From Myxococcota bacterium (GTDB lineage: Bacteria; Myxococcota_A; UBA796; GCA-2862545), in assembly GCA_039208735.1 (NCBI GenBank), contig JBCCQY010000079.1:1-38642 (forward strand): DNA of 38,642 nt. Reading direction: 5' to 3'. Positions 11,616 to 38,642 of this stretch are shown piece after piece (position 1 is the stretch's first letter; every line of letters starts with the position of its first letter). A program made the translations under genes and the position numbers. The notes below the pieces were generated by a model, which was given only the letters and a program-made list of their open reading frames with translations, was not told the DNA's origin and searched no databases.

Positions 11616-13061
11616 TCAGCTACGAAGCTGGTAGCGGGCCAGCTTTCGCTTGAGGGTGTTGCGATCGATCTCGAGCAGCCGCGCAGCTTGCGAAAGGTTC
11701 CCTGCGGTGTGGGCCAGCGCCGCCTCAAGGCTCGCCCGTTCGACCTCGGCAACCGCTTCGGCCAGCGGTCGAGGAACTCCGTGAGACCGAGAGGGTCCTC
11801 GCACCGGCTCAAGTTCGAGGTCCCCGGGCCCCACCACGTCATCGACAAACACCGTCCAGCGAACCACCTCCGCCCGAAGCTGGCGAACGTTGCCTGGCCA
11901 TGGAGCCCGCATCAACCGCTGCATCGCCCCAGGTGCGACCGAAAGGGTCGACCCTCGCTCCGTCAAGAAATGGGCCACCAGCAAAGGCACATCGTCGGGT
12001 CGGTCGCGCAGGGGAGGCACGTGCAACCCTGCCCCTCGGAGCCGGTACAACAGATCCTCGCGGAAGGCCCCCTCGGCCACCATCGCATCGAGGTCCCGGT
12101 GGGTGGCGGAAAGCAGGCGCACGTCGGCATGGCGCGTCCGCTCCGCTCCCACCGGCCGGTACCGACCGTCCTGGAGCACCCGCAACAGGTGCGCTTGGAC
12201 CCGCATCGGCAGCTCGGCCACCTCATCGAGAAACAAGGTGCCGCCATGAGCCAGCGCAAACAACCCCTTACGGTCCCCTTGGGCGCCGGTAAACGCACCT
12301 CGAACATGCCCAAACAGCTCGCTCGCCAAGGTGCCCTCGGGAAACGCCCCTGCATTCTCCGCCACGAACGGCCCTTCACGCCGCGGACTGGCCTCGTGAA
12401 CCGCCCGCGCCACCAGATCTTTGCCTGTCCCGGTCTCACCAGTGATCAACACGGGCAAATCTGGACTGGCCGCCACCCGTTCGAGCCGGCGGGCCAGCTG
12501 CTGCATCGGCGCACTTTCACCGATGATCCCACTGGCCGACCGCCGGTGGGCGGCTCGAAGCCTCGCCACCTCCGATCGAAGGGCAACGATTCGCGGGAAT
12601 CCTTCGATATCGAGCGTGACTTCACGCACCGGATGCGGATGCGGATCGGGAACGAACGCGGGTGGAATCACCTGCAGCATGCGGGCATCGATCAAGCCCG
12701 CCTGCACCAAGATCACCCAGATGGTTTGGGCCTGAGGGGTGCCCGCGGAAAGCACCACATCGCTCCTTCCGGATCCGGCCACCGCATCGGCCACTGCGCC
12801 GAAGAGTTGGCGATGGTCCGACGGATCGGTCACCTGGAGCACGCGGCACCGCACCGGCCCCCCTAGCGCCTCCGTCAGGTCGCCCACCAAGTCCTGCGCA
12901 CGCTCCTCGCCCTGCGGCGTAGTGAGCACCGTGGCCCGATCGTACTCGACGTCTCGATGGGCCACGAGCCGCATCACCGGCCCTCGATCGTCGCCTCGGG
13001 GGCGAAGATGTGCGACCGACTTGCTGGACACCCCTCGATCCGACCACGTCCACAGCTCCAT
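11616..13061 (-). CDS. rtcR: RtcR-like sigma54-dependent activator (CARF-like N-terminus, AAA+, Fis-type HTH)
   Basis: Walker A GETGTGKD, SELFGHVRGAFTGA, LFLDEV, FREDLLYRL, WPGNVRQL, HTH QAARLLEIDRNTLKRKL. N-terminal LSAGTPQAQTIW resembles the RtcR CARF motif. AGGAGG precedes ATG 13061; divergent from rtcB. Confidence 0.82.
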   Translation of the reverse strand: MELWTWSDRGVSSKSVAHLRPRGDDRGPVMRLVAHRDVEYDRATVLTTPQGEERAQDLVGDLTEALGGPVRCRVLQVTDPSDHRQLFGAVADAVAGSGRSDVVLSAGTPQAQTIWVILVQAGLIDARMLQVIPPAFVPDPHPHPVREVTLDIEGFPRIVALRSEVARLRAAHRRSASGIIGESAPMQQLARRLERVAASPDLPVLITGETGTGKDLVARAVHEASPRREGPFVAENAGAFPEGTLASELFGHVRGAFTGAQGDRKGLFALAHGGTLFLDEVAELPMRVQAHLLRVLQDGRYRPVGAERTRHADVRLLSATHRDLDAMVAEGAFREDLLYRLRGAGLHVPPLRDRPDDVPLLVAHFLTERGSTLSVAPGAMQRLMRAPWPGNVRQLRAEVVRWTVFVDDVVGPGDLELEPVRGPSRSHGVPRPLAEAVAEVERASLEAALAHTAGNLSQAARLLEIDRNTLKRKLARYQLRS

Positions 13062-13062
13062 C

Positions 13063-13119
13063 GGCCGCCTCCTGGTGCAATCTGCACCACTCTGGTGCAG
13101 CGTACCCCACACCGGGGCG
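13063..13119. promoter_or_regulatory. Enhancer-binding-protein sites (UAS): perfect TGCACCA-N3-TGGTGCA plus two weaker copies at 20-bp spacing
   Basis: TGCACCACTCTGGTGCA at 13083-13099; perfect half-site TGGTGCA at 13073-13079; degenerate TACCCCACACCGGGGCG at 13103-13119. Confidence 0.7.
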
Positions 13120-13195: not shown

Positions 13196-14380
13196 GTGCA
13201 CGACAAGGCCCGCCTGGTGACCAACGAACGCGTCTGGATGGATGGCAATGCACTGTCCCAGCTCGATGGGGTGGCCCGCGACCCCCACTGTGTGCAGGCG
13301 GTGGGGATGCCGGACCTCCACGGCGGCGCGGTAACGCCCATCGGAGCCGTGTTCGCCACCACTCACATCAGTCCTTCCCTCATTGGTGGCGACATCGGGT
13401 GCGGCGCGTGCTTCGTGCCCACCACGAAAAAACCTCCGTCCATCGACAAAGCCGACCGCAGGGTGCGATCTGCGTTCAGCCATACCGAAGAGACCGTCAT
13501 CGATCTCGGACGCGTCTGGGAGCACGGACTCACCGCACTGCCCGAGGACCTACACGACATCGTCGACGCGATGGGCTTCGATCGGTCTCCGGAGTCGGGC
13601 ATCGCGCTTCCGGAGGACCTCGCAAGTGACGGTTTTCGCAAGCAGATCGGAAGCATCGGGGGAGGCAACCACTTCGCAGAACTCGTCAAGGTCCACCGCA
13701 TCCACGACCGGGAGGTTGCTGCCGAACAGGGCATTGTGAGGGATCGCCTTGGCGTCCTGGTCCACTCGGGCTCGCGAGGCCTCGGCAAGGCGGTCGGTCG
13801 CCAATGGCCAGAGCGCTACCTCGACCCCGAACAAGAACTCGCCTACCTGGCCCAGATGCACGGAGCGATTCGGTTCGCCAAGGTGAATCGTTTGGTGCTC
13901 GTCGCTCGCATGCTTGAGGCCATCGGTGCATTTCGGCCCGACAAGCTCGGCCGGGGCATCGATGTGGTGCACAACGATGTTCAACGCGTGGAACTCGACG
14001 ATGCGCCGGTGTGGCTCCACCGCAAGGGCGCGGCTCCGGCCCGATCCGGCCAGCTCACCGTGGTGCTGGGCAGTCGAGGCGCCACCTCGTGGATTCTGCG
14101 CGGTACCGGCAGCGCCCACGGCTTGTGGTCCGTCGCCCACGGGGCCGGTCGTCGCATGACCCGCACCGAAGCCATGCAAAAGCTCAAGCACCGCTACAGT
14201 CGCTCCGAGGCGTCACGAAGCAAACTAGGCAGTCGCGTGGTCTGCCAGCGCAGCGAGGTGCTGTTCGAAGAGCATCCCGATGCCTACAAACCCGTCGAAC
14301 CCGTCGTCCAAGCCCTAATCGAGGCGGGCCTCGCCACCCCCGTCGCCGAGTTGACGCCCCTCATCACCGTGAAGACTTGA
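13196..14380 (+). CDS. rtcB: RNA ligase RtcB family, RtcB2 (PrfH-associated-type) clade
   Basis: MPDLH, GGDIGCG, GGGNHFAE, HSGSRG, VHN, HRKGA, AHGAGR, EEHPDAYK. N-terminal VWMDGNALSQL and SRSKLGSRVVC resemble RtcB2 rather than RtcB1, from memory of the family. Confidence 0.88.
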   Translation: MHDKARLVTNERVWMDGNALSQLDGVARDPHCVQAVGMPDLHGGAVTPIGAVFATTHISPSLIGGDIGCGACFVPTTKKPPSIDKADRRVRSAFSHTEETVIDLGRVWEHGLTALPEDLHDIVDAMGFDRSPESGIALPEDLASDGFRKQIGSIGGGNHFAELVKVHRIHDREVAAEQGIVRDRLGVLVHSGSRGLGKAVGRQWPERYLDPEQELAYLAQMHGAIRFAKVNRLVLVARMLEAIGAFRPDKLGRGIDVVHNDVQRVELDDAPVWLHRKGAAPARSGQLTVVLGSRGATSWILRGTGSAHGLWSVAHGAGRRMTRTEAMQKLKHRYSRSEASRSKLGSRVVCQRSEVLFEEHPDAYKPVEPVVQALIEAGLATPVAELTPLITVKT

Positions 14381-35557: not shown

Positions 35558-36442
35558 ATGAACCTCGATGACCTGGCCGTCTTCGTTCAAGTGGTCGACT
35601 CAGGCGGTTTTTCGGCCGCCGGACGAGCACTGGGCCGAACCACCAAGCAGGTGTCCCGGCAGGTGCGCCGTCTCGAGGACCACCTCGAACTTGCGCTGCT
35701 GCATCGGACCACTCGGGCCGTCAGCCTCACCGACGCGGGAACCCGCTTCTACCCACATGTCTTGCGCATCCTCGAGGACGTGCAAGCGGCCCATGAGGAC
35801 CTTCGTGGGCCTACGAGTCCGCTTCGGGGACGCCTACGGGTCGCCGTTCCCTCACTCACGACGGTGGCGGGCCTTGCCGGTTGGCTGAAGGTCTTGCACA
35901 ACCGGCACCCTGAGTTGGCGTTCGACGTTCGCATCGCCGACCGCCCTGTCGACGTCGTTGCGGAGGGCATCGATATTCAGATCAGCCCCGCTCCGCCCAG
36001 CCAAACCTCGGTCGTCCTCAAACGACTGGTCACCCTCGGCGTGCCGCTCGCCGCCCACCCCGATTACCTGGCCATCCACGGAACGCCCACGCAGCCGAGC
36101 GACCTGGAACACCACGACTGCCTTCGCTTCGTTAGCGATCAGCCCCAGCACACCTGGGACCTCATGGACACCCATGGGAACGAGGTCACCGTGGCCGTGC
36201 GGGGCTCGATCGTGAGCAGCAGCAGCGAAGTGCTCTACACCGCGATGCAGGCCGGGATCGGAATTGGCGTTTGTGGTGCCTCGATCCTCCGCCAACCCGA
36301 AAACGAGCTTATGCAAGTCCTGCCGGGCTGGACGTTCACCCCCATGCCACTGTTCGCGGTGTTTCCTCGTGCCAACCGAAAATCGCGACTCATCGAGGCC
36401 TTCCTCGACGTCGTGATGGAGGGTTTCGAAGCGTGGATTTGA
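35558..36442 (+). CDS. LysR family regulator (CrgA/DmlR-like); start at 35543 or 35558
   Basis: DLAVFVQVVDSGGFSAAGRALG..VSRQVRRLEDHL..LLHRTTRAVSLTDAG; YLAIHGTPTQPSDLEHHDC. Confidence 0.93.
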   Translation: MNLDDLAVFVQVVDSGGFSAAGRALGRTTKQVSRQVRRLEDHLELALLHRTTRAVSLTDAGTRFYPHVLRILEDVQAAHEDLRGPTSPLRGRLRVAVPSLTTVAGLAGWLKVLHNRHPELAFDVRIADRPVDVVAEGIDIQISPAPPSQTSVVLKRLVTLGVPLAAHPDYLAIHGTPTQPSDLEHHDCLRFVSDQPQHTWDLMDTHGNEVTVAVRGSIVSSSSEVLYTAMQAGIGIGVCGASILRQPENELMQVLPGWTFTPMPLFAVFPRANRKSRLIEAFLDVVMEGFEAWI

Positions 36443-36533
36443 GCGTCAAACGGGCGAGATCGGGGGCCGAGGCGTGGGCCACCACCGCAGCCTTACCGCC
36501 ACCGACCTGGTCAGAGGCAGGCCACGTTGCCGG

Positions 36534-37208
36534 TCATCGCTCCGCCTCCGTCCCGACCTCCGCGGCCAGGACCACGTCTTGCTCAAAACCCCGACGGACC
36601 AACTCGCGCCCCGATGCCGTGCGCCGAAGAGCGGCTTCCAAGTCGGGAACATGCGCATCAAATGCGGCCTGTGCGGCCACCACCTCAGGAGAGAACGAAC
36701 CGGTCAACAACGCCGCGATGGCTCCGACCCCAAGCCAGTCCTCGAGGGCGAAGCGAACGGTGTCATCGGTCCAGCGCTCTCCGGCTGCGATCAACGCGAC
36801 CCGATCAAGACGAGCCACCGCCCGTGCCACCTGATGGCGATCCCGCAAACAACCCGTGATCGCGGTCACCCCAAGGTTCCGAGCTAACGCCAGCAGTCGC
36901 GATCCGTTTAGCGAAGGGATCACGATCCGTGTACCTGGCGCGAGGCGACGCAAACTGGAGGGTGAAAGCGAAGGTTGTTCCAAGGAGCGCGGCCCCGCCA
37001 CGAGTACGCCATCCGGCACCGAACGGTCAGGATCGTGAGGGAGCACGACGGCGCCCGCTTCTCGGGCGACCGCGCAGCTCGTGCTGAACGACAACACATC
37101 CACGACGACCACGCAGTCGACGGAAGGCGCCAAGGCGCGCAGCCCGTTGGCGCCCCAGCCACAGCAGACGCGGGCATCGGGCTGCCGCCAGTCTTCGTCC
37201 ACGAGCAC
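36534..37208 (-). CDS. 2-phosphosulfolactate phosphatase (ComB) family protein
   Basis: VVVVDVLSFST, SLSPSS, PSLNGS, LIAAGERW, RFALEDWLG, SGREL..GF..DV; GGAGG before GTG 37208. Confidence 0.88.
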   Translation of the reverse strand: MLVDEDWRQPDARVCCGWGANGLRALAPSVDCVVVVDVLSFSTSCAVAREAGAVVLPHDPDRSVPDGVLVAGPRSLEQPSLSPSSLRRLAPGTRIVIPSLNGSRLLALARNLGVTAITGCLRDRHQVARAVARLDRVALIAAGERWTDDTVRFALEDWLGVGAIAALLTGSFSPEVVAAQAAFDAHVPDLEAALRRTASGRELVRRGFEQDVVLAAEVGTEAER

Positions 37209-37254
37209 GAAACCCTCCGCAGCTCGCGCTGTGCGCGAACGGCAAGGGTCCTAA

Positions 37255-38340
37255 CTATCCTTTGTGTACAATTCGAGGACGAAGCCTTCGAACGATTCGA
37301 GTCAGTTCACGCTGAGCTCGCATCACCTTGCCGATGTCGCGATAGGCCCCCGGCGACTCCTCGAGAAGCGCGGGGCCATCATGGTACGCCACCTGCGCGA
37401 GCCGACGGCGTTCATCGGGGCCAGAGAGTCGCTGCCGAGCCGCGGTGCGCGACATCGCCCGTCCAGCACCGTGCGAGGAGGACGCAAGAGCGCCCGGGTG
37501 GCCTCGTCCTTCGACATGGAAGGACGCCGTACCCATGGAGCCAGGAATCAACCCTGGCTCGCCGGCCCGTGCCGAGATTGCGCCCTTCCGATGCACCCAG
37601 AGGGGCTGATCGAAATGGCACTCGCAGCGCACGGTGTTGTGGGCACAGTCCAAGTACTGTTCGGGATCCGGCCTAAGCGCAGGCCAGATGCGTCGAAGAG
37701 CGCCAATGGCGGCCCCCAGAACCCGCTGACGATTGTGCACGGCGTAGGCTTCGGCCCACTTCAGATCATGGAGGTAGGTCTGGCCCGCTGGCGAATCGGC
37801 GAGAGGGGCCATCCCATCACGAAGCGCTTGGATCGCACGACCCAGTGCCCGCGATCCGGTATGGGCCATGAGCCAAACCCCGCCGGTGTCATCGACCTGG
37901 ACTTCCAGGAAGTGATTGCCTCTGCCGATCGTGCCCAACTGGACGTGGCCTTCCCGTCGAGCAAGCCGACGCAACCCAGGTCGAGAGAGCGCATCGGGCT
38001 CAAGATCATTGGGCCACGCAGGCTTGCGGGAATGCCGATGAATCGGCACCGCAGACGCAAGGACTTCAAGTCCGTCGGAGGCCCGCGGCAAAAGCGTAGC
38101 TTCGTCGATTCCCCGCAACGGCAGGGTCGCAACTCCGCATCCCACGTCCGACCCAATCGCCTTGGGCCGGAGGGTTTGGGACGTGGCGAGCACCGTGCCA
38201 ATGCACACGTCATGGGCAAGGTGGACGTCGGGCATGACGGCGATATGGACCGCATCATCAAGCTGAGCCAGCCGTTCGAGGCTCGTGCGAACCGCACTGT
38301 CAAGGGGCTCGGCGAGCCAAGTTTGGATGGGGGCGCTCAT
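37255..38340 (-). CDS. rtcB: RNA ligase RtcB family protein (second paralog)
   Basis: MPDVH, GSDVGCG, GRGNHFLE, HTGSR, CAHN, HRKGA, IPGSMG, SSHGAGR, EESPGAYRDI, terminal HKG; the expected metal/guanylation motifs are present. Confidence 0.92.
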   Translation of the reverse strand: MSAPIQTWLAEPLDSAVRTSLERLAQLDDAVHIAVMPDVHLAHDVCIGTVLATSQTLRPKAIGSDVGCGVATLPLRGIDEATLLPRASDGLEVLASAVPIHRHSRKPAWPNDLEPDALSRPGLRRLARREGHVQLGTIGRGNHFLEVQVDDTGGVWLMAHTGSRALGRAIQALRDGMAPLADSPAGQTYLHDLKWAEAYAVHNRQRVLGAAIGALRRIWPALRPDPEQYLDCAHNTVRCECHFDQPLWVHRKGAISARAGEPGLIPGSMGTASFHVEGRGHPGALASSSHGAGRAMSRTAARQRLSGPDERRRLAQVAYHDGPALLEESPGAYRDIGKVMRAQRELTRIVRRLRPRIVHKG

Positions 38341-38642
38341 GTGGACTCCTCGGGAGCGCGCACGAAACGCAGGTCAGGGACTCGTTTGCGATGAATCGCG
38401 TGAGCGACTTCCATGCGCAACCAGGACCGGGCCGCCTCTAGGCGGTCCAGGACCGTGTCATCCTCATCTTCAGGACGAATGACAACCCGAAACCGCGAGG
38501 CATCGGGGTCAGGCTCACAACGAACGATCCAGACGCCATGAAGGGAGACGTCCGAGGCGGCCCCCAGGGCAAGCTCGAGCGCGCGTTTGATTTGTCCACC
38601 GAGACGGCGGTGGGTGTGAGTGGTTCGAGACTTGCGGTCTCG
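38337..38642 (-). CDS. Ribosome-binding factor A (RbfA)-like protein, 5' end outside the window
   Basis: Not in the ORF track. Open frame from 38642: RDRKSRTTHTHRRLGGQIKRALELALGAASDVSLHGVWIVRCEPDPDASRFRVVIRPEDEDDTVLDRLEAARSWLRMEVAHAIHRKRVPDLRFVRAPEEST*. It follows the RbfA pattern (helix, D..L..V.I..., SPD-like turn, L..A..WLR..., R..P.L.F). The stop overlaps the rtcB ATG. Confidence 0.72.
   Translation of the reverse strand, partial: RDRKSRTTHTHRRLGGQIKRALELALGAASDVSLHGVWIVRCEPDPDASRFRVVIRPEDEDDTVLDRLEAARSWLRMEVAHAIHRKRVPDLRFVRAPEEST

Follow-up and report, generated by a model that had tools for sequence, protein, structure and literature searches.

To our knowledge, PrfH-RtcB2 is the only dedicated ribosome-repair module known, and for the majority of bacterial RtcB paralogues a substrate has yet to be assigned. 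In the PrfH-RtcB2 system of E. coli ATCC 25922, a dedicated short RtcB is accompanied by a translation-factor paralogue that binds the ribosome (PMC9304027; see also PMC9223846 and PMC13166195); RtcB2 repairs damage of the colicin E3 type at the 30S decoding centre (A1493/G1494), with the release-factor paralogue PrfH as a helper (PMC9304027). For most bacterial RtcBs, tRNA is the assumed substrate (PMC9304027), and E. coli RtcB is described as religating the MazF-cut 3′ end of 16S rRNA (PMC5416887). Here, we analyzed a 38,642-nt stretch of DNA (hereafter, the window), which is the whole contig C79 (JBCCQY010000079.1) of the Myxococcota bacterium genome GCA_039208735.1 (G000; 9.4 Mb, 288 contigs, 92.7% complete). 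At its end, the gene of an RbfA-like protein overlaps the gene of an RtcB ligase, and this pair is likely to represent an undescribed RtcB repair module where a paralogue of a ribosome factor serves as the partner.

The module resembles PrfH-RtcB2 in combining a short, dedicated RtcB with a paralogue of a ribosome-binding factor involved in translation, and differs from it in several respects. Here, the partner bears the RbfA fold and not that of a release factor, its gene stands first, the neighbor is RbfA-like rather than PrfH, and the RtcB falls under the release_rtcB cut-off and belongs to a different clade.

Three minus-strand genes occupy the final 2.1 kb of the window, and the first two of them form the module. 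The original prediction had pointed to a minus-strand frame at the contig end that was absent from the list of open reading frames (ORFs) and whose TGA overlaps the ATG of an rtcB with intact catalytic motifs, and the sequence does read so. The frame enters at the edge of the window (38642), stays open as far as its TGA (38337-38339) and encodes 101 aa; the RbfA-like gene (38340..38642, minus strand) is thus represented by the C-terminal 101 of about 132 codons, its 5′ end being cut by the contig end. The letters of the frame run as ...LDRLEAARSWLRMEVAHAIHRKRVPDLRF and then VRAPEEST. The TGA (38339-38337) and the rtcB ATG (38340-38338) make up an ATGA overlap (38337..38340, minus strand) with three bases in common. 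A Shine-Dalgarno-like GAGGAG (38346..38351, minus strand), situated 5 nt 5′ of the ATG within the codons for the acidic tail of the RbfA-like protein, is a putative Shine-Dalgarno site for rtcB, and comparable GGAG/GAGG runs are found 5′ of the junction in two related loci (L057 and L059). The rtcB gene (37255..38340, minus strand) encodes an RtcB RNA ligase of 361 aa that belongs to the RbfA-like-linked clade (Pfam RtcB, PF01139, 252.9 bits). When aligned with Pyrococcus horikoshii RtcB (1uc2), it has all the conserved blocks in place: GSDVGCG, GRGNHF, HTGSR, AHN and SSHGAGR. We take these blocks to provide the metal ligands and to include the histidine that becomes guanylylated.

The identity of the partner protein was examined with sequence profiles and structural models. 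The Pfam RBFA profile (PF02033) matched the window fragment with 40.5 bits against a cut-off of 34.7, covering positions 2-91 of the 105 in the profile; when the whole genome was searched, the score was 39.8 bits. A profile built from six family members retrieved Thermus thermophilus RbfA (2dyj) over the whole domain in a PDB profile search (E 8.5e-6). The AlphaFold2 model of the 101-residue fragment (pLDDT 87.8) shows the alpha-beta-beta-alpha-alpha-beta order (H5-27, E37-44, E50-57, H64-70, H72-83, E90-95), in agreement with the alpha1-beta1-beta2-alpha2-alpha3-beta3 order of RbfA, a type-II KH-like protein, as given in PMC9917171. When this model was used as a Foldseek query, the top 23 PDB matches were all RbfA, the best being 2dyj (TM 0.77/0.85, rmsd 1.9 Å). 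Similarly, the AlphaFold2 model of a full-length relative from genome G027 (pLDDT 87.5) has a helix at its N-terminus, followed by a disordered linker and the RbfA domain, and its six best PDB matches are RbfA. Taken together, the profiles and the models show that the partner protein has a predicted RbfA fold.

At the same time, this protein is distinct from the housekeeping RbfA. The NCBIfam equivalogs for the housekeeping protein scored far under their cut-offs (TIGR00082, 20.8 vs. 51.15 bits; NF001802, 30 vs. 142 bits), and a canonical rbfA (80.1 bits) was found elsewhere in the genome, on contig C14, where it is followed by truB and rpsO; infB was not present in the 1.5 kb of sequence upstream of it on this contig. 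A canonical RbfA (83-102 bits) also accompanies the module in five of five other module genomes checked. In a tree of 34 rows, nine canonical RbfAs were split from 25 RbfA-like proteins with support of 97/99, and truB adjoins seven of the eight canonical rows that come from relatives. These sequence comparisons show that the RbfA-like gene is to be classed as a second, divergent RbfA paralogue. It shares with the housekeeping protein the fold, the order of elements, a Pfam match above the cut-off and most signature columns, and differs from it in its separate clade, its scores under the NCBIfam cut-offs, its genomic context, about 35 additional N-terminal residues and the sequence A-R-S at the predicted kink. 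Hence, two checks suggested by the original prediction, namely, a structural match to RbfA and a separate canonical rbfA in the genome, turned out in its favor; of the expected infB-rbfA-truB context, truB was recovered.

The missing N-terminus of the RbfA-like protein was traced to another contig of the same genome, C59. The first 117 bases of C59 and the last 117 of C79 (window 38526-38642) are identical at 108 positions and differ at nine, and the C59 version of this overlap carries an in-frame TAA. Public sequencing runs helped to clarify the relation between the two contigs: two run contigs join C79-type sequence to C59, one of 303 bases (run X2) reaching into positions 105-245 of C59 and one of 192 bases (run X3) into positions 105-169. 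Compared with C59:1-700, the contigs of three public runs have the C79 letters at all seven covered differing places, including the TAA site. Given the overlap and the run contigs reading through it, C59 very probably continues C79, and the in-frame TAA of C59 appears to stem from faulty assembly. The N-terminus thus obtained, as the original prediction had hoped from extending the contig, comprises 31 codons (G000:C59:210-118, minus strand), giving a protein of about 132 residues, and bears the motif ...LCAELGPDDG... Further upstream on C59, there are genes for a zinc metallopeptidase and an RlpA-like protein. The module is likewise split between two contig ends in genome G231 (C70/C399).

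Across the family, the N-terminal extension of about 35 residues bears a nearly invariant Cys and Asp-Gly, with Cys in 77/82, Asp in 80/82 and Gly in 81/82 sequences and a C-x(4-8)-DG pattern in 76/82. Its consensus RLRxLCAExGPDDG stands ahead of a disordered basic linker, and in one subgroup (G368, G258, G263, G393) a Lys/Arg-rich N-terminus takes the place of the Cys/Asp-Gly extension. At the AXG positions, the family has Ala in 70/82 and Gly in 57/82 sequences, with Arg directly after them in 82/82. The family is large: full-length matches fall into 258 cluster representatives (50% identity) at E ≤1e-30 and 1743 at E ≤1e-10. Annotation pipelines label its members either "ribosome-binding factor A" or "hypothetical".

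Conservation of the pair was studied in a sample of 401 genomes of the phylum, where a strong RbfA-like match was defined as 69 bits or more (the next match had 52 bits). Five of 40 close relatives have a clear RbfA-like gene, which in three of them (G002, G011, G027) ends in ATGA on the RtcB start; a weak match in G014 (E 2.1e-6, within a 779-aa open frame) was set aside as a non-member. When the search was started from the ligase, 13 RtcB matches were found in other genomes at E ≤1e-60. The ten RtcBs with 47-54% identity are all encoded directly behind an RbfA-like gene (10/10, the G231 pair being split over two contig ends), and the three with 41-42% identity are not. The junction has the form NTGA in each of the 14 modules, including that of the window (8 ATGA, 5 GTGA, 1 CTGA), so that GTG or CTG would be used as the rtcB start in some of them. 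An all-against-all comparison of the neighbors, made with a crude gene caller that in places took antisense shadow frames, revealed no other conserved neighbor.

The same arrangement was observed in metagenomes. Thirteen loci were obtained around an RtcB labelled Phycisphaerae; six of them contain the RtcB start together with DNA 5′ of it. Just upstream, each of the six has an RbfA-like frame; in four loci there is an overlap with the RtcB start, and in the other two about 100-115 nt separate the end of the frame from the RtcB match. The GC content of the metagenome loci ranges from 0.43 to 0.72. A search for related loci yielded only six, from Myxococcota metagenome-assembled genomes, and homologues are labelled Myxococcota in their sources. 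In four of 13 relatives (L050, L051, L053 and L054, i.e., G310, G139, G263 and G393), the linked rtcB reads in two frames, with the breaks at different places, as sequencing or assembly errors would lie, and most likely these frameshifts are errors of this kind. The presence of an RbfA-like gene upstream of the ten closest RtcBs and the NTGA junction in all 14 modules clearly show that the RbfA-like gene and rtcB form a conserved unit and do not adjoin by chance. The pairing within this RtcB clade, which the original prediction had proposed to survey, is thereby established for the ten closest RtcBs and the six testable metagenome loci.

The ligase itself scored under both NCBIfam cut-offs for short RtcBs (release_rtcB, TIGR03073, 126.5 vs. 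271.8; PRK09588, 166.3 vs. 407). In the RtcB tree, the window RtcB and seven other RbfA-like-linked RtcBs form one clade (SH-aLRT 98-100). A profile of the clade gave 445-541 bits with its members, 319 bits with the genome's own long RtcB and 181-188 bits with RtcB2; by profile score, therefore, the linked clade is closer to the long RtcB than to RtcB2. Beyond the phylum, 6932 proteins among those scored matched the clade at E ≤1e-40, many of them labelled Planctomycetota by their sources. PrfH (TIGR03072) had no match above the cut-off in the genome of the window. In the phylum sample, PrfH is above the cut-off in five of 401 genomes, and an RtcB2 adjoins it in three of them (G379, G254, G374); the remaining two, G166 and G183, carry in addition a solo RbfA-like gene on a different contig. 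An RtcB is likewise found next to two PrfH-like matches that stay under the cut-off (G148:C495, G174:C43).

Upstream of the module, we found a short leader ORF. An ATG ORF of 5-30 codons with a GGAGG-type site 3-10 nt before it is present within 260 nt 5′ of the RbfA-like start in 10 of the 14 modules, compared to 0.22 on average and at most 2 in 500 sets of dinucleotide shuffles. The upstream ORF of the window's module (C59:300-267, minus strand; with its GGGAGGG site, locus L060, G000:C59, 267-312) consists of 10 codons and is located 57-90 nt 5′ of the RbfA-like start. The peptides encoded by the 10 leaders are dissimilar in sequence, and on average the leaders of these modules fold more stably than shuffles (mean z -2.3). 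An anti-Shine-Dalgarno switch was considered as well, as GGGAGGG in the window's own leader pairs with a CU-rich stretch; it was rejected, given that over the 10 loci 22 of 200 shuffles were as good. No Rfam family was matched in C59:1-8000 or in window 35758-38642, and a promoter/terminator scan of 36200-38642 gave nothing exceeding shuffles. A short leader ORF in front of an RtcB-like operon is also a feature of Pseudomonas aeruginosa, where the leader peptide PA5471.1 has been proposed to respond to impaired or stalled ribosomes and thereby to control armZ (RtcB-like) and PA5470 (PMC12057347). The likeness is one of arrangement, and the leader peptides of our 10 loci differ from each other.

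What could such a pair do? PMC9917171 shows that the AXG helix-kink-helix motif of RbfA and its alpha1/beta1 linker hold the 3′ end of 16S rRNA, and that the beta1/beta2 loop faces the neck, i.e., h28 and the h44-h45 linker. When bound, RbfA displaces h44/h45 and blocks 50S joining, thereby keeping the immature 30S subunits from the 50S (PMC8201178). The region bound by RbfA is the one cut by colicin E3-type toxins and MazF, and these are breaks that RtcBs reseal, which is why we read the pair as a device for 30S repair. Tentatively, with a chance that we put somewhat short of even, we propose that the RbfA paralogue and its dedicated, intact RtcB work on the small ribosomal subunit, where the 16S rRNA of the 30S particle would be resealed. 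Like RbfA, the RbfA-like protein would bind the neck and the 3′-minor-domain region of 16S rRNA (h44/h45 and the 3′ tail); acting as a guide or holder, it would keep the damaged subunit out of translation; RtcB would then reseal the break bearing 2′,3′-cyclic-phosphate or 3′-phosphate and 5′-OH ends. The ATGA overlap would provide the two proteins in a fixed ratio, and the leader ORF with its strong Shine-Dalgarno site on C59 might tie their expression to the state of the ribosomes. The repair reading stands on the PrfH-RtcB2 analogy and on the binding place of RbfA, and the 30S binding, the RNA substrate, the regulatory logic and any contact of one protein with the other are likewise proposals. 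A complex prediction for the full-length G027 pair, run without controls, gave a score of 0.00 and carries no weight either way. Equally uninformative was a search of the genome for the colicin E3 domain family PF09000, which gave no match, as its control search gave none either.

A number of observations weigh against the repair reading. The RbfA-like copies of five relatives reach 27-33 bits on Pfam RBFA, i.e., remain under the cut-off, which points to a large divergence from RbfA. The window copy has A-R-S at the predicted AXG kink and D-V in the alpha1/beta1 linker, where the family has D-P, and the N-terminal Cys...Asp-Gly motif is without a counterpart in RbfA. Another 21 genomes have a strong RbfA-like match, and ten of these lack both an adjoining RtcB and an RtcB of the clade at E ≤1e-60; in one more, the RbfA-like gene is at a contig end and cannot be judged. 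In a poorly resolved tree, linked and unlinked RbfA-like copies are mixed, with seven label changes. The window's own leader is no stabler than shuffles (z -0.9 and 0.03). Finally, the linked RtcB clade is far from the three PrfH-linked RtcB2s of the same phylum, which sit on a separate long branch. As these RtcB2s are no kin of the linked clade, the analogy with PrfH-RtcB2 is one of architecture and not of descent.

Part of this evidence would fit another role of the partner. The RbfA-like protein may be a KH-type RNA-binding subunit that confers specificity on RtcB or activates it, steering the ligase to a non-ribosomal RNA such as cut tRNA or mRNA, in the manner of archease. In archease-RtcB, a small protein is likewise dedicated to RtcB, and the archease fold differs from that of RbfA. 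The tight coupling and conservation of the pair speak for this reading, and no archease (PF01951) was found in the 92.7%-complete genome, although the control search did find it in six named genomes. The distance from canonical RbfA, both in the NCBIfam score and in the relatives under the Pfam cut-off, the protein's own N-terminal motif, and the assumption, given in PMC9304027, that most bacterial RtcBs act on tRNA point in the same direction. On the other hand, the protein has kept the whole RbfA fold and most elements that hold the 16S 3′ end, every solved RbfA-fold match is a ribosome-bound assembly factor, and the solo copies in genomes without the clade RtcB are unexpected of an obligatory ligase subunit. 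We regard a non-ribosomal substrate as unlikely.

The solo copies show that the RbfA-like protein has a role with no need for this RtcB. In a further possibility, the two proteins may share an operon and an inducing signal and act on separate targets, RtcB in general RNA repair and the RbfA-like protein as a stress RbfA that re-matures, parks or checks 30S subunits. Such a division of labor would be in line with the ten of 21 other genomes that keep the RbfA-like gene alone, with the mixture of linked and solo copies in the tree, and with the known ability of RbfA to keep immature 30S from joining 50S (PMC8201178, as above). Moreover, among 11 solo genes, seven are also preceded by an ORF that has a strong Shine-Dalgarno site, a count taken within 330 nt from the domain start and hence not strictly comparable with the 10/14 of the modules. 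However, the 4-base stop/start overlap is kept in 14 of 14 modules, and in the samples searched the ligase clade was never met without its partner (10/10 and 6/6), which points to joint action; separate action thus appears to us quite unlikely. The solo genes are those of loci L016-L018, L022, L026, L031, L032, L034, L035 and L037. In two genomes, G265 and G226, a solo RbfA-like gene is followed by a cupin-domain gene (Pfam Cupin_2, 57 and 52 bits).

That the adjacency is meaningless, a decaying rbfA duplicate happening to precede an rtcB paralogue, might be suspected from the gene cut by the contig end and from the frameshifted rtcB of four of the 13 relatives, but it is very improbable in view of the large family (258/1743 representatives) with full-length matches and many strongly conserved columns, the junction and pairing kept in different families of the phylum as well as in metagenome loci that vary widely in GC, and frameshifts that lie at different places, as sequencing or assembly errors do.

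Returning to the repair of 30S subunits, a stronger version of it would be that of an independently evolved second ribosome-repair system, in which the paralogue would take hold of the damaged 3′ minor domain of the 16S rRNA on the 30S subunit and pass it to its own RtcB, and a leader ORF with a very strong Shine-Dalgarno site would switch on the operon, its translation gauging whether the ribosomes retain working anti-Shine-Dalgarno ends; we consider this extended scheme doubtful. Should the repair reading be true, small-subunit repair would have evolved two or more times, guided each time by a different ribosome-factor paralogue, and myxobacteria and planctomycetes would possess a defence against rRNA-cleaving toxins. 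It would also assign a role to proteins that are currently labelled "ribosome-binding factor A" or "hypothetical". In any case, a large and widespread RtcB clade gets a clue to its substrate, in that the relatives of its partner hold the 16S region cut by ribotoxins and MazF-type nucleases. Text searches of the literature returned no description of an RtcB-RbfA-like pair; supplementary files, including the SI (supporting information) figures of PMC9304027, which possibly show this RtcB cluster, lay outside these searches. Likewise, the pair is unmentioned in the bioinformatic section of PMC9304027, as far as its available part goes.

The third gene of the locus (36534..37208, minus strand; 224 codons) encodes a protein of the ComB family, similar to 2-phosphosulfolactate phosphatase. 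It matched Pfam 2-ph_phosp with 64.1 bits against a cut-off of 26.4, and all NCBIfam equivalogs were far under their cut-offs (e.g., 37.1 vs. 175). The gene lies on the same strand 46 nt downstream of rtcB, has its own GGAGGG, and is probably co-transcribed with the module here. As a third member of the module it was rejected: in 15 extended loci, including 13 that carry module genes of relatives, tblastn did not reveal any gene related to it.

The window contig also bears a classical Rtc pair, where a second RtcB gene (13196-14380, plus strand; 394 aa) is adjacent to and divergent from the gene of an RtcR-domain sigma-54 activator (11616-13112, minus strand; PF06956, 23.9 bits vs. a cut-off of 23.1). 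The RtcR-regulated Rtc system, consisting of the sigma-54 activator RtcR and RtcB, sometimes with RtcA, has an RtcB in common with the module, and in that system it is a stress-induced RNA repair enzyme. The module RtcB differs in having no adjoining RtcR or sigma-54 element, in belonging to another clade and in being preceded by a leader ORF instead. The third RtcB of the genome, a long one of 456 aa, is encoded on contig C70.

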